Positions 505 to 58,395 of a DNA stretch of 64,000 nucleotides are shown here, piece by piece. The stretch's first letter is position 1. Every line of letters starts with the position of its first letter. Source of the DNA: an uncultured Candidatus Accumulibacter sp. (lineage in GTDB: Bacteria; Pseudomonadota; Gammaproteobacteria; Burkholderiales; Rhodocyclaceae); assembly GCA_964420975.1 (NCBI GenBank), contig CAYQVH010000018.1, forward strand, positions 8,847-72,846, written 5' to 3'. A program made the translations under genes and the position numbers. The notes beneath the pieces were generated by a model. It did not search any database. It had not been told where the DNA came from and was given only the letters and a program-made list of their open reading frames with translations.

Positions 505-1367
505 GGCAGCGCTCCGCTACCCGCCGCGTCGGCGAAGAACAGCCATCGCCGTGCGGCCAACGGCGCCCGACCGAGGAAAGCGGCCAGTGGCGCCGTGTCC
601 GCCGCATAGCCGAATTGCAGCATGCGCAGGTTGTCCGGCTGCAGAATCGGATGCACGCCGCGACCGGCGAAGGCGATCGCCATCGCCACCGCGTACGGAA
701 TCCGCAACCACGGCGCCGGCGACAAGCCCTGCGCGCAGCGCATCCGTTGCAGCCAGTCCGCGACGGTCACGCTTTCCGGCCCGACGAGGTCCAGGGTCAG
801 TCGTGTTTCGGCGCAAGCAAGACTGCGCATGACGGTTGCGACGACGTCGCCGATGTGGACCGGTTGCAACCGTTGTCGGCCGTCTCCGACCACCGGGATG
901 ACCGGCAGCACCGAGAGTCGCAGGAACAGCGTCGCGCTACTGCCGCCGCGACCGTAGATCAACGACGGGCGCAGCACCAACCAGTCGAGGTCGAGGCGGC
1001 GCAGTTCGTCGTCGGCGGCGCGCTTGCTCCGGTGGTAGGCGGAAAACGCCTGGTCGTCAGCCCCCAGCGCCGAAATCTGCACGACGCGAGGTACTCCCCT
1101 TTTGGCGCAGGCCCGGAAAAGTGTGGTCGGTGCCAAGGTATGGACGACCTTGAACGACTGTCCCGCGGTTTCGGCGAGGATGCCGACGCTGTTGATCACG
1201 GCGTCGACGCCGTCCAGATGGGGAAGCCAGTCGTCTGGAACCAGCCGGGTCGCAAAATCGACGCCGTCGCGTCGGGATACCGGAACCACCCGGTGACCGG
1301 CGGCAGTGAGGGCGGCGGCAAGATTGCGACCGATGAAGCCGGTCGCTCCGGTGAGCAGGACGTTCAT
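501..1367 (-). CDS. NAD(P)-dependent epimerase/dehydratase, atypical SDR (NDUFA9-like)
   Basis: Rossmann motif MNVLLTGATGFIG, YHRSK (YxxxK), LRPSLIYG; start placed at ATG 1367 rather than the ORF-track start 1472. Confidence 0.9.
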   Translation of the reverse strand: MNVLLTGATGFIGRNLAAALTAAGHRVVPVSRRDGVDFATRLVPDDWLPHLDGVDAVINSVGILAETAGQSFKVVHTLAPTTLFRACAKRGVPRVVQISALGADDQAFSAYHRSKRAADDELRRLDLDWLVLRPSLIYGRGGSSATLFLRLSVLPVIPVVGDGRQRLQPVHIGDVVATVMRSLACAETRLTLDLVGPESVTVADWLQRMRCAQGLSPAPWLRIPYAVAMAIAFAGRGVHPILQPDNLRMLQFGYAADTAPLAAFLGRAPLAARRWLFFADAAGSGALP

Positions 1368-1497
1368 GGGCGGCTCCTGAGGAGTGGTTGGAGCCCCCAG
1401 TCTGGGTTGCCGCGCGGGCCCTGGCTTCCGCTTTGATCGCAGTGGAACAACTTCCGCTTCCGGAAGGATCATTCCGGAGCAAGCCGCCGCCCGCCAG

Positions 1498-2526
1498 TCA
1501 GCCGGCGGCTGCCCTGGCGACGGTATGCAGCTTCCGGTACCGGCCGGGAGTCATTCCCTCGAGCTCCCGAAACGCCTCGTAGAAGTTGGACTGCGACGTG
1601 AAGCCGACGCCGAGGCCGACCGAGAGGACCGATGCCGAGGGCTCGGCGAGCAACATCGCCTTCGCCGCCGCAACCCGCTTCTCCCGCAGATAGCGCGAGT
1701 AGCTCACGCCGAGGCGGGTATTGATCAGTTCCGACAGCTGATGAGAACTGATCCCGATCCGCCGCGCCAGGCTGGCGAGGCTCAGGTCCGGATCCTTGTA
1801 GACACCTTGGTCGGCCATCAGCGCGGCCAGTCGGGCGAGCGCCGCGGCGCAATCGACGTTGCCGAGAGTCGAGCTTGCGTACGCCGCTTGCGCCGCCTGC
1901 GTCACCTCCGTCGACAACGCTGGGCGCAACCCCAGGGTGATCTGGACGAGGACGAAAGCGCTGCCGATGGCAATCGCGTACCAGACGAAGAAATCCTTGT
2001 CCGGCATGCCGACGCCGACGATGCCGAGCGCCGACGCGCCCAGGGCGATGGCGAAGACACCGCTCAACCACCGTATCTCGAGCCGGAAATGCGCCCTTTC
2101 ACCCCGCAGGAGGTAGATGCAGCGACCCAGCCAGGCGAGATAGCCGGCGCCGATCAGGAACGCGACGGGCAAGGCGACAGCGGGCGGGAGGACGAGCGAC
2201 CCGACGATCGGCAGGGCGTGCGCTACCCACTCCGAGCGCTTCGCGGCCCCCGAGAAGCCGACCATCAGCGGCCGGCTGAAAAAATGGAACGCCGGTGCGA
2301 CGGCGAACAACAGCAGGCGGTACGGCAGCGTCTCGATCCAGGGTCGATCGAAATACAGCCAGGCGAAATGCGCGACCTGGATTCCGGCCAGCGCCGCCAG
2401 CAGCGTCAAACCCATCACCCTTGCCGCCGGCTGGTCGGCGTAGTGGCGGCGACGGAAATGGGTCAGCGCCAGGACGACCGCGCTGAACAGGGAAAATCCA
2501 ATCAACAGGAGAGCGAGGGCTTTCAT
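1498..2526 (-). CDS. AraC family transcriptional regulator with N-terminal membrane sensor domain
   Basis: N-terminal ~200 aa multi-TM; C-terminal AraC HTH (LSLASLARRIG, GFTSQSNFYEAFRELEGMTPGRYR). Confidence 0.9.
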   Translation of the reverse strand: MKALALLLIGFSLFSAVVLALTHFRRRHYADQPAARVMGLTLLAALAGIQVAHFAWLYFDRPWIETLPYRLLLFAVAPAFHFFSRPLMVGFSGAAKRSEWVAHALPIVGSLVLPPAVALPVAFLIGAGYLAWLGRCIYLLRGERAHFRLEIRWLSGVFAIALGASALGIVGVGMPDKDFFVWYAIAIGSAFVLVQITLGLRPALSTEVTQAAQAAYASSTLGNVDCAAALARLAALMADQGVYKDPDLSLASLARRIGISSHQLSELINTRLGVSYSRYLREKRVAAAKAMLLAEPSASVLSVGLGVGFTSQSNFYEAFRELEGMTPGRYRKLHTVARAAAG

Positions 2527-44194: not shown

Positions 44195-45220
44195 CTACGC
44201 GGGCTGACTCACAAACCCTTTTTGGTACGTCCGCTCATGGGCCAGCAGGGCCCAGATCGTGCGCGCCATCTTGTTGGCCAACGCGACCACCGCGACATTC
44301 AGCGGCCGGCGTCGGCGCAGTTCCGTGATCCACGGTTCCGGCTCCCGGGTATGCGTCAGCACCGAGCGTGCGCCGTGGATCAGCAGCGTGCGCAGGTAGG
44401 TATCGCCGCGCTTGCTGATGCCCAAGAGCCGTATTCGCCCGCCAGTGCCGGTTTGTCGAGGAACCAGACCCAACCAGGCGGCAAATTCGCGCCCGGATTT
44501 GAAGGCCTTGGCTTCGCCCATCGTGGCCACCGCCGCCGTCGCGCTCAGCAGGCCCACGCCGGGAATGCCGGCAAGACGCTGGCAGGCTTTGTCTTCTCTG
44601 TGCCAGACCTTGAGCCGCCGCTCGATTTCCCCGATTGCATCGTCGAGCTTGCCGATGCGCGCCCACTGCTCGCGCAGGGTGTCGATGACCATCGTCGGCA
44701 GTCGATCCGCCAGCCGCTGTAAGGCTTCGGCCAGGCCTTTCCTGAGCCCGACCTTGCCTTGTGCCATCACTTCGCCATATTCGGTCAGTAGCCCGCGCAG
44801 GCCATTGATCTGCGCCGTGCGGAACTTCACCAACTGCTGGCGCATGCGGTGCAGGGCCAGCATCGCTTGCTGCTCCTCGGTCTTGACGGCCACCGCCTTG
44901 ACACCTGGCTGCTGCACCGCCGTCCAGATGGCGCGGGCGTCATGCGCGTCGCTCTTGTTGCCGCCGACGAAGGGTTTCACCCCCTTGGCCGGCATGAGTT
45001 TGACCTCGTGCCCCATCGCGACGAGTTTCCTCGCCCAGTGCTGCGATCCGCCGCAGGCTTCCAGACCGATCAGGCAGGGCGCCCGGTTGGCAAAGTGCGC
45101 CAGGAACTTCTCGCGCTTGAGCTGCAAACTCACGATTTCTCCGGTCGCCAAGTCGATCCAGTACAACTGAAACACCCGTTTGGCGATATCCACGCCAACC
45201 ACTGTTTTGCTATCCTTCAT
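44195..45220 (-). CDS. IS110 family DEDD recombinase/transposase (341 aa)
   Basis: VGVDIAK, GLEACG, KSDAHDA, IPGVG, FAAWLGLVP, KRGDTYLRTLLIHGA, VALANKMAR; RBS GGAGG before ATG 45220. Confidence 0.96.
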   Translation of the reverse strand: MKDSKTVVGVDIAKRVFQLYWIDLATGEIVSLQLKREKFLAHFANRAPCLIGLEACGGSQHWARKLVAMGHEVKLMPAKGVKPFVGGNKSDAHDARAIWTAVQQPGVKAVAVKTEEQQAMLALHRMRQQLVKFRTAQINGLRGLLTEYGEVMAQGKVGLRKGLAEALQRLADRLPTMVIDTLREQWARIGKLDDAIGEIERRLKVWHREDKACQRLAGIPGVGLLSATAAVATMGEAKAFKSGREFAAWLGLVPRQTGTGGRIRLLGISKRGDTYLRTLLIHGARSVLTHTREPEPWITELRRRRPLNVAVVALANKMARTIWALLAHERTYQKGFVSQPA

Positions 45221-46251
45221 TTCGGACCCTCCGGTTTGCCTGTGAAGATCCCATTCCTCCACCTTGGGCACTTCGATGCCGTCGGCCCGTGAGGGTCCCT
45301 CTCCCATACAACCACCACCCAGACTTATCCACGGCGCCGGGCGCCGACGGTCACCTCTATGACCAGAGGTGACCGGCGCGGTGGTTAAGTCGTGTTCAGC
45401 GCTCACGGGGTGGGAGGCGTCCATTCCATTTCTCGACGACTTCGTGAAACGGATGAGGCGTCTTGCCTGGCGCTGCCTCGAAGGCGCTGACAAAATCCGT
45501 GATCGACTCGGCCAGTGTGGGCGGATTGTCCTTGACCGCCAGCACATCGTTGGCCCCCCGATCGCGAATGGCTTGTGCAATGCCGGGCTGGGTGCCCATG
45601 GCGTCGATGGTCACGATGCAGCCTTCCAGGGCCAAGGTCGCCAGCAGTTCGGGAATGGCGGTCTTATCGTTCGACTTCGCGGCCGTCGCACGCTGTCCCA
45701 GCACCAGGCCCGCCTGGGCGGCAAAGGCGCTGACCAGATGCCACGGCGTGGCACCCACTTTTCCTGATCGACGGCTCGTCTTGCCGTCGATCGCGACCAC
45801 TTCGCCCTTCGTCAAGGCCGGCACCACCTGGCCCACCCAGCGCAAGAACGCCGCACCGAACTCGTCGGGATCCATCGCCGCGAAGACGCGGCCAAACGTG
45901 TCATGGCAGGGGATACCGCGCTCAAGTTTCAGATACTTCCGTAGCCCGTCCCGTTTCTCTTTCGCCCACACCTCGATAGCGACGAAGGTATCGGCACCCG
46001 ACAGGACCGCGCAGACGGCAACCACCCGCCATTCCACCCGATCGTGCTCGACCTTCTTTGCCTGTCTTGGGTCCCGCACCCCAACCCAGACGTCTACCCA
46101 CCGAACCGAGTTCTCTGCCTGCATGGAAACCCCCAAAAAGACAGAAAACTACACAAATCAGAGGGCTGTGAACAGCCCCTTCGTAACTCCTTGAGGGTAA
46201 ACGATTATTTTGAAGTGTTCACGACGATGGCATTCATGCGATTGCCCTGGG

Positions 46252-50419: not shown

Positions 50420-50962
50420 TCAACCGGCGGACGCCGACCGGTGGTGCCGGAGCGCGACCGGTTGGGGTTCGAGTTTCCGGCGCAGCACATGGTCCACCGA
50501 AAGTCGCCCCGGACCCATCAACAGCAGTGGCAGCAACATGCCGATATAGAGAACGGGCAACTTGAAGTTGCCAAAGCCCTGGTCGGTGATGACGTAGCCC
50601 TTGAGCAGTTCGCTGGCGCTTGCCCACGATGCGGGCCAGTGCACGCTGGCAATCGCCACCACCGTCAGTACGACCAAGGATAGCGAGAAGAAACGGGTCA
50701 TCACGCCAAACACCAAGGCGACACCACCGAGGATTTCGAACCAGGTCGCGAGCTGCCAACTGACCGCCGGTGGAACGAGGTCGAATGGAAACGGGAAGCG
50801 GTCGTGGATGTCGGTAAACCAGTTTTCCCCGCCGAGCTTCTCGATCCCGGCCTCGAAGAACTCCCAACCGAGGACGAGTCGCAGACTGAGCAAACCGATG
50901 GCCAGGCCAAGCCAGTCAACGGCCGCCAAGCCCTTCCAAAGCAGCGGACGAGGCGACGTCAT
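50420..50962 (-). CDS. DoxX family membrane protein (HvfX-like)
   Basis: [35 protein letters not shown]. Confidence 0.85.
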
Positions 50963-51696
50963 GGCCTGCTCCCGAGAAGGAGGTGTTGACGATGCAACTG
51001 TCGCAGGACCTCACTGCCAAAAGCGACCAGTTGCGCAAGAGACGGGTGCTGCAGCTCGCCGGCGATTTGTTCGAGAGCCGCACGGCCGCTGGTATCACCG
51101 ACCGAAAGCAAAGTCAGAAGGCGCGCCGTGACAGCGTTGAGCTCGGTGAAGCCAACCTCGTCGTCACTGTGGCGATGCACCGCGAGATAGGTGGCCAGCG
51201 GCTTCCGCGGCCGGTAGGCGAAGCCGATGCGATGCACTGGCCAGGCGTAGTGCAACACCCGACAGCTTGGATTGACGACCACGACCTCGCGCAACAGGTC
51301 ACCTTCCGGATCGTGCGCGGGCGTCGGGACGTCCAGCGCTTCGACCGCCAGCTCCACCCACTCGTAGTGCGCGAGATCGGCAAACCAGGCGGGAAGCGGC
51401 GGCTTCGTCTCGGCCTCGGCAAGGTAGCGAACGAATTCGCGGGGAATCTCCCGAAATAAGGGCGTGTGCAACGGCCAGTCGCGATAAAAGCTGCGATTGA
51501 GCCGCCGCCAGCGGCGTTCGCCAAGCAGCTGTCGCCCGACCGGGAAGCACGCGTCGAGAAAGCCGCAGAGGTTGTTGAACAGCAGTTCGGCGTAGACCGC
51601 GGCGGTACGCCCGGGAACGCCGGCGGGCCGCCGATGGCGATGCGGGTCGCGCAGGTAGCGGCCAAAACTGCGCTGGAAATCCTGATACTCGTTCAT
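50959..51696 (-). CDS. DUF2063 (HvfC/BufC-like) MNIO partner protein
   Basis: [40 protein letters not shown]. Confidence 0.88.
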
Positions 51697-51697
51697 T

Positions 51698-52552
51698 TCA
51701 GGCTGCCCTGCGCGTTGCGTATGGAGCGGCGGCCTGCAGGCGGGCGATGGTCTCCACCTCGGCGCTCAGGCGATCGAGTTCGGGAAAGTTGAAATCACGT
51801 TCCAGGCACGTCGCAACGTCGCCACCAATGCGCTGGTAGAGCGCCGCGAGCAGATCCCAGACCGGATCAATCACCTCCGCACCATGGGTGTCGATGATCA
51901 ACCCGTCAGGCTCGACGTAGTGGCCCGCCACATGGACATACGCCGTCCGCTCCAGCGGCAAGGAGTCGATATAAGCGAGCGGTTCAAAGCCGAAATTACG
52001 ACTATTGACGTAAACATTATTGACGTCGAGATGCAGCAGGCAGTCGGCCTCGGTCAAAACGGCGGTCATGAACTCGCTCTCGCTCATTTCAGCCCCCGGC
52101 GGCGCAACGTAGTAGGAAGGGTTCTCGATGCCGATACGCTGGCCGAGGACGTCCTGCGTCTGGCGGATTCGGTCCACCGTCCAGCGAACGGCGTCGCCGG
52201 TCAGGGGGATCGGCAGCAAGTCATACAAATGACTGTCGTCGCTGCACCACGAAAGATGCTCGGTGTACAGCGTCATCCCGTGTTCGCCCATGAACGAACG
52301 GATTTGCCGCAACAAGCTCGTATCCAGCGGTGCCAAGCCGCCGAGCGAGAGCGACAAGCCGTGGCAGACAAAGGGGTAGCGTTCGCTGAAACAGCGCAGA
52401 TCCCGTTGCCAACGACCGCCGACACCCGCCCAGTTCTCCGGCGCCAACTCGAAAAAAGCGATTGCCGGCGGAACTGCCGACTTCAGCGCGGGAATCAGTT
52501 CGCGGCGAAAGCCGAGGCCGGCGCCGGTCACGGAACGAAGTGCAGCCATCAC
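51698..52552 (-). CDS. DUF692 multinuclear non-heme iron oxidative enzyme (MNIO; HvfB/BufB-like)
   Basis: GLGFRR, ELAPENW, HGLSLSLGG, EHLSW, IENPSYY, LDVNNVYVN, HVAGH, DTHG, LERD. Confidence 0.93.
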   Translation of the reverse strand: MMAALRSVTGAGLGFRRELIPALKSAVPPAIAFFELAPENWAGVGGRWQRDLRCFSERYPFVCHGLSLSLGGLAPLDTSLLRQIRSFMGEHGMTLYTEHLSWCSDDSHLYDLLPIPLTGDAVRWTVDRIRQTQDVLGQRIGIENPSYYVAPPGAEMSESEFMTAVLTEADCLLHLDVNNVYVNSRNFGFEPLAYIDSLPLERTAYVHVAGHYVEPDGLIIDTHGAEVIDPVWDLLAALYQRIGGDVATCLERDFNFPELDRLSAEVETIARLQAAAPYATRRAA

Positions 52553-52753
52553 CCCTCCAGAAGATGTTCAGCCAGCGCTGGCGACAAACCAAGCGTACCG
52601 CCAGCAACAAGACGCGGAAGAAACACACGCCTAGCGCGCCCGTCGTGATCCGGCTGGCGATCGCCAGCCGTCGCGCCCGCGTGTGTTCTCCTGCTCATCG
52701 GGAATCCGGACAACGATGAGGTCGCCACCATTGTCCCGACCCTCATCGACGTC

Positions 52754-53062
52754 CTACTTTTTGGTGCTGCCGCACTTGCCTTCGCCGCACTTGCCGTCCT
52801 TGCTCTTGTCGGCTTTCTTGTCGGCGCCGCACTTGCCTTCGCCGCACTTGCCGTCCTTGCCTTTTTCGGCTTTCTTGTCGCCACCACACTTGCCTTCACC
52901 GCACTTGCCGTCTTTCTGTTTCGTGTCTGCCTGTGCCAGCTGGTAGCCCGACTGCAGCGACTTGACCGCAAACGGATTCTCGGCGGCATGGGCGAGCGGC
53001 GACAAAGCGGTTGCGGCAAACGCGGAGGTGACGGCAAGCGAAGCGAGTTGACGTTTTTTCAT
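52754..53062 (-). CDS. HvfA/oxazolin-type secreted RiPP precursor (102 aa)
   Basis: Signal peptide, ENPFA..L.SGY linker, three DGKCGEGKCG units (six Cys); directly upstream of DUF692. Confidence 0.9.
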   Translation of the reverse strand: MKKRQLASLAVTSAFAATALSPLAHAAENPFAVKSLQSGYQLAQADTKQKDGKCGEGKCGGDKKAEKGKDGKCGEGKCGADKKADKSKDGKCGEGKCGSTKK

Positions 53063-53116
53063 TGTGATTTCTCCATTGGGTTGATGAGGTTGCGAACAGG
53101 CGAAGTGCCCGCTCAA

Positions 53117-53144
53117 GCGGATAGTCGCGCCAGCGAAAAGTTCC
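53117..53144 (-). promoter_or_regulatory. Possible ECF sigma promoter of the RiPP operon
   Basis: Minus strand GGAACTT-N16-TCCGC, resembling RpoE-type -35/-10 elements. Confidence 0.3.
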
Positions 53145-53261
53145 TTACAGGTTTTTTCTCGCGACTGACTGACGGTCGCTCCGACGCTTCTCGAGGCCCT
53201 GCGGCAGCACGTGCCGCGCACGACCGATTGATCGTTTCGACCAATCTCGTCCAACCGGCGT

Positions 53262-54851
53262 CTAGCCGACGACCTGACTCCAATCGAGTCCGAAACGCGC
53301 CAGGTACTTGCGCAGCCGATCGGCATCGTTGATCTGACTTTTCTGCAGTCGCGAGACGGCGAACAAGCGACGGCCGGCTTCGGACAGACTGGGCGAGCGC
53401 CGACAAACGTCGACGACGAAGTTGATCTGCCCGCGATCAAAAAGGTCGAGCGATTCGGCTGCGTCGCCTAGCAGGCGGCGTGCTGGGTCGGTGGGGAGGT
53501 CTTCGCCCCCCCAGGACGCGCGCAGGCGTTCGATTTCGGCCTCGACGTCGAGCTCGTTGATGCGCCCCCCGTCGCAAAGCGTCGCCAGGCGCGTCAGCGA
53601 GGCCGAAAGTTCGCGGAAGTTGCCGCTCCAACGCGCCGCGGACGAACACGCGAAGGCCAGGTAACGCCGTCGCGCCTCGACGTTGAAGCGAACCAGGCGA
53701 CCGTTGTCGCGCGCGTAGCGTTCGAGTTCGAAGTCAACATTGGGTTCGATGTCTTCGCGACGTTCGCAAAGTCCGGGCAGTTCGAACGTCCACAGGTTGA
53801 TCCGCGCCAACAAGTCCTCGCGAAAGCGACCTTCTCCCACCTCGCGACGCAAGTCGCGGTTGGTGCCCGCGATCAGTTGAAAGTCACTCGCCGCCTCACG
53901 GTCGCTACCCACCGGCAGGAAGCGTTTCTCTTCAATCGCCTTGAGCAGCATCGCCTGCTCGTCGACGCCCAGTTCGCCGATTTCGTCAAGAAACAACAGG
54001 CCGCCGTCGGCCGCTCGCAACAGCCCACCGCGCTCGACCTGCGCACCGGTAAACGCGCCGCGAACGTGGCCGAAGAGCGCCGACATCGCAGCGTCACCGC
54101 GCAAGGTCGCGCAGTTGAGTTCGACAAAGCGGCCGGGAAGGCGTTGACGCTGACGTTTCCACTCAAAAACCCGGCGTGCCAGAAACGACTTGCCCGCACC
54201 AGTCGGTCCGACCAGCAGCAGCGGCGCCCGCGAGCGAGCGGCAACCCGTTCGATGCGCTCGATCATGGCGTTGAACGCCGCGTTGCGCGTTGCGATCCCC
54301 GCTTTGAGGAAGCTCACGGTGTCTTCCTGTTCGCGCCGGAAGCGCTGCGCGATCTTGTCGTAGCACGAGAGGTCGAGGTCGATGATCGCGTAAGAACCAG
54401 CCGGGTTCGGCCCATCCCGGCCACGCGGCGGCGAGGTCTGGAGCAGGCGCGCCGGCAGGTAACGCGCTTCCGCGAGCAGGAACCAGCAGATTTGTGCGAC
54501 GTGACTGCCGGTCGTGATGTGAATCAGGTAATCGGCTTCGTCAGCGGCAAACGGATAGGCGCGTGCAAAGTCGAGTAACGTCGTATACACCTCCTCAAAG
54601 TCCCAAGGATCGCGGAGCTCGATTTCGACGCTCCGGACTTCGGTCTCCGGCGCAACGGACGCGATATCCAGTCGGGTCTGCTCGAAGAGTCCTCGACTGC
54701 GCTGATCGTGCAGTAATTCGAGCCGATGCACGACCAGGTCTTCCTGCTGACAAAGAGCGACGGTCGGTCGCCACCTTTGCCAACGCGCGCTACCTCGTCC
54801 CGCGTTATCGAGCTGCGTGCCCAGAAAACCGACCACGACCAGTTGGCGCAT
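53262..54851 (-). CDS. rtcR: RNA repair transcriptional activator RtcR (CARF + sigma54 AAA+)
   Basis: VVGFLGTQLD, RWRPTV, DPWDFEEVY, HITTGSHVAQIC, GPTGAGKS, GAFTGA, LFLDEIG. Confidence 0.96.
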   Translation of the reverse strand: MRQLVVVGFLGTQLDNAGRGSARWQRWRPTVALCQQEDLVVHRLELLHDQRSRGLFEQTRLDIASVAPETEVRSVEIELRDPWDFEEVYTTLLDFARAYPFAADEADYLIHITTGSHVAQICWFLLAEARYLPARLLQTSPPRGRDGPNPAGSYAIIDLDLSCYDKIAQRFRREQEDTVSFLKAGIATRNAAFNAMIERIERVAARSRAPLLLVGPTGAGKSFLARRVFEWKRQRQRLPGRFVELNCATLRGDAAMSALFGHVRGAFTGAQVERGGLLRAADGGLLFLDEIGELGVDEQAMLLKAIEEKRFLPVGSDREAASDFQLIAGTNRDLRREVGEGRFREDLLARINLWTFELPGLCERREDIEPNVDFELERYARDNGRLVRFNVEARRRYLAFACSSAARWSGNFRELSASLTRLATLCDGGRINELDVEAEIERLRASWGGEDLPTDPARRLLGDAAESLDLFDRGQINFVVDVCRRSPSLSEAGRRLFAVSRLQKSQINDADRLRKYLARFGLDWSQVVG

Positions 54852-54988: not shown

Positions 54989-55004
54989 TGGCACGTCTTT
55001 CGCT
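54989..55004 (+). promoter_or_regulatory. Sigma54 (-24/-12) promoter of the rtcB operon
   Basis: TGGCAC-GTCTT-TCGCT with correct GG/GC spacing, divergent from rtcR. Confidence 0.75.
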
Positions 55005-55025
55005 TTGACGAAAGCGATCGTCACT

Positions 55026-55071
55026 GCGCCGCAAGGGCCCACGGGCCAGGGTTCAACAGCCCTGCCGGTGC
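55026..55071 (+). ncRNA. tRNA-like module A (acceptor-like stem plus T-arm-like hairpin)
   Basis: GCGCCG/CGGTGC stem enclosing CAGGG-TTCAACAG-CCCTG (55047-55064). Confidence 0.35.
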
Positions 55072-55099
55072 GCGATGGCCGGACGCTGGTCCGTCGCCG

Positions 55100-55181
55100 T
55101 CGCGTATGCCGCCGCGACGCATGCGGTCATCTCGCGGACTCGGGTGAGTGAATGCGGGTTCGAATCCCGCCCCGCGAACCA
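55100..55181 (+). ncRNA. Pseudo-tRNA module B ending in ACCA
   Basis: Canonical T arm GCGGG-TTCGAAT-CCCGC (55154-55170), then a 7-nt acceptor strand CCCGCGA and ACCA; 5' partner TCGCG at 55100 or TCGCGG at 55132; non-canonical D and anticodon arms. Confidence 0.6.
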
Positions 55182-55182
55182 C

Positions 55183-55246
55183 TGGATAGCTCAGTCGGGT
55201 AGAGCAGCCGCCTTGGCGGCGTGTCGCAGGTTCGACTCCTGCTCCA
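55183..55246 (+). ncRNA. Pseudo-tRNA module C with a 4-nt anticodon loop
   Basis: TAGCTCAGTCGGGTAGAGCA D arm, GCCGC-CTTG-GCGGC, T arm GCAGG-TTCGACT-CCTGC; only a 4-bp acceptor stem TGGA/TCCA. Confidence 0.65.
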
Positions 55247-55530
55247 AGCCTGTCTTCAAACGACAGTGCGTTATCAGTAACACCCGCCGGTCGCGGCATG
55301 CGCAAGCACCCGCCATCGGGCGCGCGCGGCCCCTGCCCCGGATCAGCGGCAGAGCCGGACGGCGTCGCGGGTCGCTGCGTCGGGAGCCGCATGGCTCGTG
55401 AGCGCAGGCACTCGGCGCCGACGGCTTCCCCGCTGCTCTCGGAAGGGCGGCCCCGCCGCCCGCTGCCGACCGGCAACAAACAGAAGGTGTGCTGCCCTCA
55501 GCGCGGGGAATCAAGAGGAAAGGAAACGCG

Positions 55531-56691
55531 ATGTTGAAACGATTGGTCGTAAAAAAGAGCGAACGCGGAGTGTTGCGTAAGGACGGCGACTTCGAGGCGA
55601 TTCTTCCGCCTGGACGCTACCGCTTCGTCGATCCGTGGCGCCGGGTCTCACTCCAGTTGTGGCCCGCCGATTCGCGCATGACCGACCTCGATCTGGTCGA
55701 CTACCTGCTGCAAGAGGACGCCGCGACAGCCACCGAACACTTTGTCCCGATGGTTCTCGGCGAAGACGAAGCCGGCCTGCGCTATGAGAACGAAACGCTG
55801 GTCGAGATTCTGCCGCCCGCCTCGCGCAACTACTGGTGGAAGGGGTTCCTGAACCATCGCCTCGAGCGCGTCGACCTGAAGGCAGAGGCGACTTTGCCGT
55901 CCAGACTGGCAGCTCGCTTGGCGCAACCCGCGCTGCGCGGGCAGCCGGTCACCGGCCTCGGTGGCCTGCTCCTGCAACAGGTCCCCGTCGGTTGGGTCGC
56001 GGTCGTGCGTGTCGACGGCAAAGTGAAAGACCTTCTCGCGCCGGGGCTGGCCGCGTTCTGGCGCTTCAACCACGAGGTGCAGCTCGAACTGGTCGACACC
56101 CGCTGGCAGTCGATGGAAGTCAGCGGCCAGGAGATCCTGTCGCGTGACAAGGTCGCGCTGCGCCTCAACCTGGTCGCCACTTGGCGTTATTCCGACGTGT
56201 TGCGGGCCTTCGAACAGCTCTGCAAGCCTGCCGAACACCTCTACCGCGAGCTGCAGCTCGGGTTGCGGGCGGCGGTTGGTACGCGCTCGGTCGACGAACT
56301 GCTTGACAACAAGCAGGTCATCGATGAGGGAGTCGCCGCGCACGTGGCCCGCAAGCTGCAAGGCTTCGGACTCGAAGTCGCCAGCCTCGGCGTTCGTGAC
56401 ATCGTACTGCCAGGCGAGATGAAGACGATCCTGGCGCAGGTGGTTGAGGCACAGAAGTCGGCGGAGGCGAACGTCATCCGCCGGAGGGAAGAAACCGCCG
56501 CCACCCGCTCGCTGTTGAATACGGCGCGGGTCATGGAGGACAACCCGACCGCTTTGCGCCTGAAGGAACTGGAAACGTTGGAAAGGGTCGCCGAGCGCAT
56601 CGATCGCATCTCGGTCTTCGGCGGTCTCGATCAGGTGCTCGACGGACTGGTTCGTATTGGTCACGGCAAAACGGAGGAGAAACGTACATGA
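55531..56691 (+). CDS. SPFH/band-7 (slipin) family protein
   Basis: VDTRWQSMEVSGQEILSRDKVALR, VRDIVLPGEMK, RREETAATRSLLNTA..MEDNP..L.LKELE. Confidence 0.9.
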   Translation: MLKRLVVKKSERGVLRKDGDFEAILPPGRYRFVDPWRRVSLQLWPADSRMTDLDLVDYLLQEDAATATEHFVPMVLGEDEAGLRYENETLVEILPPASRNYWWKGFLNHRLERVDLKAEATLPSRLAARLAQPALRGQPVTGLGGLLLQQVPVGWVAVVRVDGKVKDLLAPGLAAFWRFNHEVQLELVDTRWQSMEVSGQEILSRDKVALRLNLVATWRYSDVLRAFEQLCKPAEHLYRELQLGLRAAVGTRSVDELLDNKQVIDEGVAAHVARKLQGFGLEVASLGVRDIVLPGEMKTILAQVVEAQKSAEANVIRRREETAATRSLLNTARVMEDNPTALRLKELETLERVAERIDRISVFGGLDQVLDGLVRIGHGKTEEKRT

Positions 56692-57101
56692 TCAGTGGCA
56701 AACAGAAGCGTCTCGCGCTGCGCGAACGGTGCCGCTTGCGCGCCGCACGCCGCCTCGCCGTGATGCAGCAAGCGACCCGAGAGCCGGCGCCGGCGCGAAC
56801 GGTGCCGGTAGGCGCCCCACTGCTCGTGTCCGGCGCCTGGCCTGGAGCGCCGGACTTCATCCGGCGCGGCTATTACCAGGACACGCCCTTTTCGTGTGTC
56901 GACTGCGGTGCGTTCTGCGTCTGGTTCGCCAGTCGCCAGAAGTGGTGGTACGAAGTCGCCGGCGGCGACCTCGCCAGCACGGCGCGCCGCTGCGCCGCCT
57001 GCCGCGCGGCGGAAAGGCAGCGCAAGGCCGACGCACGGCAGTGCCGGCTCGCCGGCATCGAGGCAAAGGTCGGGCGAGCCAGGACGGCGTTGCTCCCGTA
57101 A
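56688..57101 (+). CDS. Zinc-ribbon protein (zf-trcl-like)
   Basis: D.PFSCVDCG...QKWWYE...RCAACR; 4-nt overlap with the SPFH gene. Confidence 0.7.
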   Translation: MISGKQKRLALRERCRLRAARRLAVMQQATREPAPARTVPVGAPLLVSGAWPGAPDFIRRGYYQDTPFSCVDCGAFCVWFASRQKWWYEVAGGDLASTARRCAACRAAERQRKADARQCRLAGIEAKVGRARTALLP

Positions 57102-57153: not shown

Positions 57154-58395
57154 ATGACAGAACATCAGCAACAGCCATCGGCGAGTGAAGTGATCGCCCT
57201 GCCCGGCACACACCCCATCCGGATGTGGACAGAAGGTGTACCGGTCGAGGAAGAGGCGCGCCAGCAACTCATCAATACGGCGCGCATGCCGTTCATTTTT
57301 CGGCACTTGGCGGTAATGCCCGACGTCCATCTGGGAAAGGGATCGACCATCGGCAGCGTGATTCCGACCCGTGGCGCGATCATCCCGGCAGCAGTCGGCG
57401 TCGACATCGGTTGCGGCATGATCGCGACGCGAACGACGCTGAACGCCGCCGACCTGCCGGACAACCTGCATCCGCTGCGTACGGCGATCGAACGTGCGGT
57501 TCCGCACGGGCGTACCGTTGGTCGCGGCAAGCGCGACGAAGGCAGCTGGGAGAATCCGCCTGAGTTCGTCAGCCGGTTGTGGGGCGAACTGTTGCCTGGC
57601 TTTCAGCGCCTCGTCGACAAGCATCCGCGTCTGAAATCAACCAACCACTACAAGCACTTGGGAACGCTGGGCAGCGGTAACCACTTCATCGAGGTCTGTC
57701 TGGACGAGGTCGATCGCGTCTGGTTCATGCTGCATTCGGGGTCCCGCGGAATCGGCAACGCGATCGGCTGTCTATTCATTGAACTCGCGCAGTCGGATAT
57801 GCGCCGACATCACGCGAGTCTGCCCGACCGCGACCTCGCCTATATCGAGGAAGGCAGCCCGAACTTTGCCGATTATCTGGAGGCGGTCGGCTGGGCACAG
57901 GACTACGCGCGCCACAACCGGCAGGCAATGATGACCCATCTTGTCGCCGCCGCACGGCAGGTGATCGCGCGGCCATTCGCGATCGACGCCGAGGCGGTCA
58001 ACTGTCATCACAACTACGTACAACAGGAGACCCACTTCGGCGCGGAAGTCTACGTCACGCGCAAAGGCGCGGTCTCGGCGCGCAGGGGCGAGCTCGGGAT
58101 CATCCCCGGCTCGATGGGCGCACGCAGCTACATCGTGCGAGGACTCGGCAACGAGGAGGCGTTCTGTTCGTGCAGCCACGGCGCGGGGCGGACGATGAGC
58201 CGCAATGAGGCCAGGCGGCGCTTCACCGTCGCCGACCAGGAACGCGCCACCGCGCACGTCGAGTGCCGCAAGGATCGCAACGTGATCGACGAAATCCCGA
58301 TGGCGTACAAGAACATCGACGCCGTGATGTACGCCCAGCGATCGCTGGTTGAAATCGTGCATACGCTACGGCAGGTGGTCTGCGTCAAGGGCTGA
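57154..58395 (+). CDS. rtcB: RNA 3'-phosphate/2',3'-cyclic phosphate 5'-OH ligase
   Basis: MPDVHLGKG, GVDIGCG, GTLGSGNHF, HSGSRG, HNY, RKGA, PGSMG, SHGAGR, YKNID. Confidence 0.97.
   Translation: MTEHQQQPSASEVIALPGTHPIRMWTEGVPVEEEARQQLINTARMPFIFRHLAVMPDVHLGKGSTIGSVIPTRGAIIPAAVGVDIGCGMIATRTTLNAADLPDNLHPLRTAIERAVPHGRTVGRGKRDEGSWENPPEFVSRLWGELLPGFQRLVDKHPRLKSTNHYKHLGTLGSGNHFIEVCLDEVDRVWFMLHSGSRGIGNAIGCLFIELAQSDMRRHHASLPDRDLAYIEEGSPNFADYLEAVGWAQDYARHNRQAMMTHLVAAARQVIARPFAIDAEAVNCHHNYVQQETHFGAEVYVTRKGAVSARRGELGIIPGSMGARSYIVRGLGNEEAFCSCSHGAGRTMSRNEARRRFTVADQERATAHVECRKDRNVIDEIPMAYKNIDAVMYAQRSLVEIVHTLRQVVCVKG

Follow-up and report, generated by a model that had tools for sequence, protein, structure and literature searches.

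A predicted tRNA-mimicking RNA of the band 7-associated class at the head of an RtcR-controlled RNA-repair operon in Candidatus Accumulibacter

Rtc RNA-repair operons respond to tRNA damage caused by toxins, phage defence and antibiotics. The subject of this work is a structured RNA of about 285 nucleotides (nt) encoded between rtcR and a slipin gene of such an operon, in a 64,000-nt stretch of DNA from an uncultured Candidatus Accumulibacter sp. (contig CAYQVH010000018.1, positions 8,847 to 72,846; this whole stretch is called the window, and coordinates count from its first letter). The closest described relative is the band 7-associated tRNA, or b7a-tRNA, predicted in 2016 by Burroughs and Aravind; the part of Wang et al. 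that deals with it (bioRxiv 10.1101/312249) describes a tRNA-resembling RNA that adjoins genes for a Band-7 (SPFH) protein and RtcB, is proposed to substitute for Ro60 and Y RNA, is maybe functionally redundant with YrlA and was, as of 2018, 'not validated experimentally'. Both traits of this class are found in the window, where a Band-7/SPFH gene and rtcB lie adjacent to the RNA, downstream and on the same strand, and the RNA has a strong likeness to tRNA (41 bits against a gathering score of 29 with the Rfam model RF00005, and a cloverleaf that covaries among 67 relatives). Judged by its sequence, the window RNA belongs to the b7a-tRNA class, which is real, little studied and already predicted, and which is missing from Rfam. 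It differs from the b7a-tRNA, as that citing paper describes it, in its extent, the part that resembles tRNA forming a single module within the transcript of about 285 nt, and it adds a 5' three-way junction, a minihelix ending in CCA, terminal hairpins and transcripts in metatranscriptomes. The extended architecture and the evidence for expression in natural communities may be new. No literature on binding partners or a function of this RNA was found.

Comparison with relatives and the ends of metatranscriptome contigs divide the RNA into a predicted 5' three-way junction, two tRNA-like modules and two terminal hairpins, laid out as follows.

55031 to 55316 (+): stable RNA, about 285 nt, delimited by metatranscriptome contig ends
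55036 to 55113 (+): 5' domain, a predicted closed three-way junction, from covariance model R1
55036-55038 with 55111-55113 (+): helix H1 of the 5' domain, from comparison
55044-55046 and 55048-55051 with 55060-55066 (+): helix H2 of the 5' domain, from comparison
55067 to 55110 (+): H3 of the 5' domain, a long hairpin with the conserved base GGUGCG...GUAUGCC
55132 to 55181 (+): module 1, a tRNA 'top half', from sequence and relatives
55132-55138 with 55171-55177 (+): acceptor stem of module 1, 6-7 bp
55139 to 55148 (+): mini hairpin of module 1, 3 bp
55154 to 55170 (+): T arm of module 1, canonical
55178 to 55181 (+): ACCA encoded after module 1
55183 to 55246 (+): module 2, a cloverleaf resembling tRNA (41 bits with the Rfam tRNA model)
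55183-55186 with 55243-55246 (+): acceptor of module 2, 4 bp
55189 to 55205 (+): D arm of module 2, canonical
55207-55211 with 55216-55220 (+): stem of module 2 at the anticodon position, closing a CUUG tetraloop (55212-55215)
55226 to 55242 (+): T arm of module 2, canonical
55250 to 55266 (+): hairpin CUGUC-UUCAAAC-GACAG, kept as a hairpin in most clades
55293 to 55313 (+): terminal hairpin with a GCAA (GNRA) tetraloop, a block conserved in Rhodocyclales

The initial annotation, made from the sequence of the window, had described here an array of tRNA mimics with four T-loop hairpins. Two tRNA-like modules stand, one with a 7-nt acceptor strand followed by ACCA (55171-55177 and 55178-55181, pairing with 55132-55138) and the next with a D arm of canonical form and a loop of 4 nt, CUUG, both as it had read them, but the other parts are the three-way junction and plain hairpins. 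Likewise, all four hairpins lie where it had placed them, but only 55154-55170 and 55226-55242 are canonical T arms, the loops of those at 55048-55063 and 55250-55266 being neither conserved in sequence nor of T-loop consensus.

A copy of the RNA is already present in the annotation of a model pathogen. PA4581.1 of Pseudomonas aeruginosa PAO1 lies between rtcR (PA4581) and PA4582-PA4585 and is orthologous by position, and the loci of other Pseudomonas species have the 5' domain followed by two abutting tRNA-like modules. Unlike the window RNA, PA4581.1 is annotated and discussed as a tRNA, and module 1 in Pseudomonas is a full cloverleaf where the window has a minihelix. Under the name 'tRNA-Arg4' it was noted in 2026 as having no CCA and, by quantitative reverse-transcription PCR, an expression about half that of canonical tRNAs (PMC13637947). 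The slipin of P. aeruginosa, PaFlo8, is encoded inside the rtc locus, which there has RtcA (PMC13086221). Judged by its position, the tRNA-Arg4 label in PAO1 is probably a genome annotation error spread by tRNA finders. With a class predicted in 2016 and a P. aeruginosa copy carrying a tRNA name, the suggestion of the initial annotation that the system is undescribed is not upheld.

YrlA, found in the rsr-rtcB loci of Salmonella and Mycobacterium, is the other system to which the RNA can be compared. Its gene, too, lies in an RtcB operon under RtcR control, and the RNA imitates the T arm, D arm and elbow of tRNA; the partial match of the YrlA model to the window extends from the T arm of module 1 to the D arm of module 2. 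In contrast to the YrlA loci, the window has no Ro60 gene, its modules are ordinary and unpermuted, and module 2 has a T arm of its own. RNase P cuts the YrlA of M. smegmatis, to which CCA is added (PMC4201824), whereas in the window RNA a CCA is encoded after module 1. Membership of the YrlA family was considered and rejected: scoring with the YrlA model (RF02553), a check that the initial annotation had proposed, gives 31.6 bits against a gathering score of 69, at 55153-55205 and over model positions 30-81 only, the partial match taking in no more than a T arm and a D arm with a poorly paired 'acceptor hairpin' between them, and none of 16 related loci has a match at gathering score. A YrlA-type Ro-binding stem between the 5' and 3' ends is likewise unsupported, the candidate stem conflicting with H1 and H2. 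As the initial annotation had stated, no Ro60/TROVE domain occurs among the 29 open reading frames (ORFs) of the window scanned with Pfam, and none occurs in the neighbourhood of the corresponding locus of Azoarcus sp. KH32C.

The architecture of the RNA is supported by comparison across relatives retrieved through the neighbouring gene. Slipin homologues number in the thousands and are named 'slipin family protein', the closest being those of Rhodocyclales (Accumulibacter, Azoarcus, Dechloromonas); 80 genomic loci were fetched by means of slipin, and 81 sources were searched. Most of the 80 loci show BLAST similarity in the spacer, and in most of them nhmmer finds both a 5' block and a tRNA-like block 5' of slipin. 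A covariance model of the 5' domain (R1), built from 26 sequences, matches 78 of the 81 sources at 36-89 bits, always 5' of slipin and only once in the window, the matching sources belonging to Rhodocyclales, Burkholderiales and Pseudomonas; conservation, one of the checks proposed at the outset, is therefore found with this model. Among 77 distinct sequences the helices of the 5' domain have 91.6% of their cells paired, compared with 75.3% in shuffles, and a covariation score of 0.463 compared with 0.174, a value reached by none of 500 shuffles and falling to 0.10 or less when the partner strand is slid by 1-3 columns. Of its 28 pairs, 21 vary on both sides, and the closing pair of H1 occurs as GC in 36 sequences, CG in 14, AU in 6 and UA in 5. 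The hairpin at 55048-55063 corresponds to H2, and its loop varies in sequence and length among relatives. Two longer-range pairings were considered. A closing stem of 55036-55045 with 55283-55292, proposed by RNAalifold on 12 sequences, clashes with H1 and H2, which show compensatory changes, and where G-to-A changes disrupt it, the compensation lies within H2; it was rejected because of this conflict. A closing helix of 55111-55118 with 55290-55297, from the centroid fold, is unsupported, being compensated in only 3 of the 12 sequences of alignment A2 and broken in most of the others.

The Rfam tRNA model is the only one with a gathering-score match in the window, covering model positions 4-67, and it finds module 2 at 36-60 bits in 16 relatives. 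On 67 relatives the cloverleaf is 89% paired, with a covariation score of 0.403 against 0.142 that none of 500 shuffles reaches; the D stem is invariant and the T loop nearly so, and the anticodon and T stems covary. All elements of the tRNA elbow are retained, namely a D arm with GG, the T loop UUCGA, U8 and A14. The acceptor keeps only its inner 4-5 pairs, the outer two being unpaired in 39 of 66 and 49 of 66 sequences, and no CCA follows the module. At the anticodon position about a third of the relatives (about 24) have a tetraloop (GAAA, GCAA, UUCG or CUUG), and in about 26 the loop has 7 nt and its triplet is not conserved, many of these loops reading CU-NNN-AA. Because the anticodon loop is freely replaced while the D arm and T loop are nearly invariant, the pattern of conservation indicates that selection acts on the L-shape and the elbow and not on decoding. 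The initial annotation had concluded that no decodable tRNA is present, and this is borne out: module 2 of the window has neither a 7-nt loop with a conserved anticodon nor a 7-bp acceptor with CCA, and ARAGORN finds no tRNA gene in the 64-kb window. In many related loci ARAGORN does call a 'tRNA' 250-400 nt 5' of slipin, with anticodons that differ or are undefined, and in Pseudomonas it calls two abutting 'tRNAs'. The T-arm motif GGTTCRANTCC has two matches only in the window, at 55157 and 55229, where 0.28 would be expected by chance.

Support for the stem of module 1 comes from a direct count of complementarity with a shuffled control: all 7 positions of the acceptor strands are paired in 27 of 68 loci and 6 of the 7 in 40, the sequences diverge widely, the spacing is constant within each clade, and the mean best pairing score is 6.38 compared with 5.47 for shuffled strands, a difference whose significance per sequence is weak. 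The stem is considered supported because 27 perfect 7-bp stems differ in sequence at clade-constant spacing. A MAFFT alignment of modules 1 and 2, intended for a second covariance model, was set aside, the variable hairpin having shifted the 5' acceptor strand out of register. In most beta-proteobacterial loci CCA or NCCA stands 3' of module 1, which in beta-proteobacteria has no anticodon arm and in the window no D arm either, and the full cloverleaf of Pseudomonas module 1 has no CCA. In six loci (L022, L026, L027, L032, L035 and L059 of our set) module 1 is missing and the 5' domain is joined by a short linker to module 2, and therefore module 1 is dispensable in some lineages. Following module 2, the hairpin at 55250-55266 has different stems in different clades (CUGCC/GGCAG, UGGCC/GCCAA, GGUC/GACC) and variable loops, and in Burkholderiales a GGUC-GNRA-GACC hairpin occurs at a position near that of the terminal hairpin, 3' of module 2. 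The 3' end of the RNA lies just past the terminal hairpin at 55293-55313.

Transcript data consist of assembled metatranscriptome contigs, the ends of which can reflect strain variation and the depth of which is a rough measure. The sequence of the RNA was found in at least 19 metatranscriptome runs from 8 studies, and contigs from 14 runs cover the RNA and mostly not the flanking genes. Their 5' ends fall at 55031 (5 runs), 55032 (2), 55035 (1), 55036 (1) and 55042 (3), with others at 55056 and 55060, and their 3' ends at 55310-55321 in five runs, at 55283-55285 in five others and at 55252, 55388, 55457 and 55525 in one case each. Contigs span the junction of modules 1 and 2 uncut, and the processing by RNase P/Z that the initial annotation had suggested is unsupported. 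In four runs followed over 18 kb, the bins of rtcR and rtcB have zero depth and that of slipin 0.3 or less, compared with up to 16 for the bin of the RNA, and at an Accumulibacter locus two bioreactor runs have depths of 42 and 70 on the RNA and of 3 or less on the flanking genes. The RNA thus builds up as a discrete species where mRNAs of the adjoining genes are scarce, and the discrete transcripts for which the initial annotation had suggested looking are observed. From the -12 element, transcription would be expected to start about 15 nt upstream of the contig end at 55031, which suggests that the 5' end of the RNA is trimmed.

The surroundings of the RNA are those of an rtc operon, with the following features.

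53262 to 54851 (-): rtcR, Pfam RtcR (E=5e-84) and Sigma54_activat (E=6.5e-48)
54989 to 55004 (+): sigma54 -24/-12 promoter, TGGCAC-N5-TCGCT, read from the sequence, its columns invariant in alignment A2
55531 to 56691 (+): slipin (SPFH/Band-7), Pfam Band_7 (E=9e-28)
56688 to 57101 (+): small treble-clef zinc-finger ORF, Pfam zf_Tbcl (E=5e-12)
57154 to 58395 (+): rtcB, RNA ligase, Pfam RtcB (E=2e-127)

Divergent RtcR, a -24/-12 promoter and RtcB, the components of an RtcR/sigma54-controlled rtc operon, are all present in the window. The RtcR protein combines a CARF-type RtcR domain with a sigma54-interacting AAA+ domain, and its gene diverges from the RNA, an arrangement shared by 49 of the 50 loci with both rtcR and the RNA, where the distance to the 5' domain is mostly 160-200 nt. 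The spacer of 680 nt between rtcR and slipin holds both the structured RNA and the promoter, whose elements are TGGCAC (54989-54994) and TCGC (55000-55003). Among the 56 loci not classed as lacking rtcR, 45 have this -24/-12 pattern 5' of the RNA, compared with 1 of the 21 rtcR-less loci. Both the promoter and the placing of tRNA mimics at the 5' end of an RtcR/sigma54 transcript that heads an RtcB operon, as the initial annotation had it, are supported by these data. A scan of the window sequence around the RNA found no sigma70 promoter and no intrinsic terminator.

The small zinc-finger ORF begins within the 3' end of slipin (56688 compared with 56691). It has a tblastn match in 23 related loci, mostly directly 3' of slipin, and because its position between slipin and rtcB is kept in these loci, it is on this comparative ground a genuine fourth component of the operon. 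The start of rtcB is probably the ATG at 57154, a GGAG standing just 5' of it. The rtcB gene is present in 62 of the 80 fetched loci, and Azoarcus sp. KH32C has the same gene order, with a 410-residue RtcB immediately after slipin. No RtcA domain occurs among the 29 window ORFs scanned with Pfam, a scan that included no dedicated search for RtcA. The RNA is in all cases on the same strand as slipin, about 200-300 nt 5' of its start, and in the window the roughly 220 nt between the RNA and the slipin start codon are weakly conserved. Within this interval a short motif, (A)CGGCAAC, stands shortly 5' of the slipin start (55470-55500 in the window) and recurs in the distant relatives L038, L055 and L063, directly 5' of the ribosome-binding site of slipin; it is complementary to part of the invariant GUAUGCCG in the 5' domain, a complementarity that could hint at an interaction in cis.

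The best explanation of these results, one which we hold with slightly better than even confidence, is that the RNA acts in trans as a partner of a cage-forming slipin and of RtcB by mimicking the shape of tRNA. The structured 5' piece of the operon transcript would persist as the RNA of about 285 nt and would then be the RNA component of a ribonucleoprotein that also contains slipin and perhaps the zinc-finger protein. It would display tRNA-shaped surfaces, the elbow and the acceptor end and not the anticodon, and these would recruit, position or regulate RtcB or tRNA-end enzymes in the repair of cleaved tRNA-like substrates. It corresponds to the role proposed for the Y RNA that accompanies Ro60 in the Salmonella-type rtc operon. 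The class to which the RNA belongs is predicted, uncharacterised and annotated as ordinary tRNA in at least one model pathogen genome. The present results correct what is probably an annotation error, narrow the candidate mechanisms to shape mimicry over an anticodon decoy, and provide handles for further study, namely a multi-domain RNA larger than a single tRNA unit, its discrete accumulation in nature, and a dispensable anticodon loop beside an invariant elbow.

Several points weigh against this explanation. The partnership of the RNA with slipin and RtcB is one that we infer from conserved adjacency. Folding of the single sequence compared with shuffles gives z scores of -2.2 and -1.57, the latter not a significant difference, and both are uninformative in this GC-rich RNA. 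A structured 5' leader fragment that merely outlived its mRNA would yield an identical pattern of contigs; at the Accumulibacter locus with the bioreactor runs, moreover, contigs start inside the 5' domain, and two of four runs cover the RNA and the genes evenly and are uninformative. In P. aeruginosa, the level of PA4581.1 is unchanged on induction of the Rtc proteins (PMC13637947), which fits poorly with simple co-transcription from the RtcR promoter.

A possible, though unlikely, alternative is that the RNA is a cis-acting leader, a sensor or attenuator in the 5' untranslated region that gates transcription or translation of slipin and rtcB. Its ligand might be a tRNA-end enzyme, RtcB, or tRNA that is uncharged or damaged, and the abundant 285-nt species would be the terminated or processed leader. 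The constant strand and distance of the RNA relative to slipin would be expected of a leader, and the contigs reaching 55388, 55457 and 55525 mean that read-through transcripts exist; a leader found without its downstream mRNA is also what many attenuators produce. However, no intrinsic terminator follows the RNA, the 220 nt up to the start codon are poorly conserved, and no alternative pairing supported by covariation was found. The same RNA, furthermore, precedes slipin in loci that have neither rtcR nor the sigma54 promoter, and operons with Ro60 and Y RNA offer a precedent for an RNA acting in trans.

About 20 of these loci without rtcR and sigma54 promoter, all from Burkholderiales, have a gene for an HNH endonuclease 5' of the RNA, slipin and RtcB on the same strand, at a distance of about 0.5-2.5 kb from the RNA and with a conserved C-terminus (...DVHDWLAARLPKGSRLS before the stop codon); they include L025, L043, L045, L047, L056, L057, L060, L063, L065, L066 and L071. 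Further 5', many of them have 3-10 tRNA genes of canonical appearance in an array (Glu, Asp, Phe, Arg, Pro, His, Leu, Lys, Gln, Met), and such loci may represent an island for tRNA supply or repair. In Acidovorax benzenivorans (L055), a bacterial RNase P RNA gene (1295-1634, minus strand; 205 bits) lies about 1.8 kb 5' of the RNA, beyond rtcR, a synteny that may be coincidental.

Less probable still is a role as decoy or signal, which the initial annotation had proposed, in which the RNA absorbs anticodon nucleases or tRNA-modifying toxins, or is cleaved to pieces that bear a 2',3'-cyclic phosphate and activate the CARF domain of RtcR. RtcR has indeed been proposed to be activated by tRNA fragments with such an end (PMC7790460, PMC10159003), and the possibilities put forward by the authors working on YrlA include that it competitively inhibits an anticodon nuclease. 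The tRNA-like YrlA of Salmonella was not cut by the relevant nuclease (PMC7790460). The RNA itself speaks mostly against this role. About 26 relatives keep a 7-nt loop, many with CU-NNN-AA, but the 'anticodon' is not conserved among these loops, and module 1 of beta-proteobacteria has no anticodon arm at all. The CUUG tetraloop of the window and the GNRA or UUCG loops of about 24 relatives cannot mimic an anticodon loop, and it is because tetraloops replace this loop that the decoy model is disfavoured. An anticodon-nuclease decoy fits poorly with a module in which the anticodon loop is the least constrained part.

That the modules are decaying or odd functionless tRNA genes, or real tRNAs as the name tRNA-Arg4 implies, is very improbable, since Rfam tRNA scores above gathering and ARAGORN 'tRNAs' in many relatives are set against a position kept across two proteobacterial classes, compensatory changes with an invariant D arm and T loop, an acceptor of 4-5 bp, the lack of CCA after module 2, arbitrary or absent anticodons, and the fusion of the modules to a conserved domain that is not tRNA.

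For the RNA as a trans-acting partner of slipin, the protein itself suggests a more specific and speculative picture. Residues 187-374 of the slipin alignment profile match stomatin in the PDB (E=2e-23), in its oligomerising part. In an AlphaFold2 model (pLDDT 77.7, about 88-90 for the bulk of residues 1-120), three beta repeats at the N terminus precede an SPFH domain and a long helix, and there is no membrane hairpin. With this model, the top Foldseek hits are cage-forming SPFH proteins (stomatin, HflK/C, prohibitin), and major vault protein aligns over 423-481 columns (E ~1e-9) along the whole length of slipin, being the only class of hit to align over more columns than the 386 residues of the query. 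The eukaryotic vault particle consists of major vault protein, vault RNA and the TROVE protein TEP1. The slipin shares with the vault the domain order of beta repeats, an SPFH-like shoulder and a long helix, and both have a small structured non-coding RNA. The likeness in the predicted model is at the level of the fold only, with TM-scores of 0.36-0.38 and no Vault repeat match at the sequence level (Pfam); vault RNAs, unlike the window RNA, are not tRNA-like in this way, and the slipin cage and its binding of RNA are hypothetical here. We regard it as doubtful, yet conceivable, that the RNA and slipin, perhaps with the zinc-finger protein, form a soluble vault-like SPFH cage for RNA repair. 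If this were true, the tRNA-shaped modules would bring RtcB and broken tRNA-like substrates together, the 5' junction domain with its tandem tRNA-like modules would define an RNA family, and Ro60 with Y RNA, SPFH cages and the eukaryotic vault would be variations on one evolutionary theme.

Elsewhere in the window, genes for dicarboxylate transport and fumarase follow rtcB on its 3' side, and an IS110-family transposase ORF lies at 44195-45580 (minus strand). At 50959-53440 (minus strand), a DUF2063/NGO1945 gene adjoins a gene for an MbnB/TglH/ChrH-type enzyme that modifies ribosomally synthesised and post-translationally modified peptides (RiPPs). Apart from the RNA, only the adjacent stretch at 52.6-53.2 kb reaches a high metatranscriptome depth (up to 71) within the 18 kb examined; the contigs that cover it show repeat-like joints, and it may encode precursor peptides.

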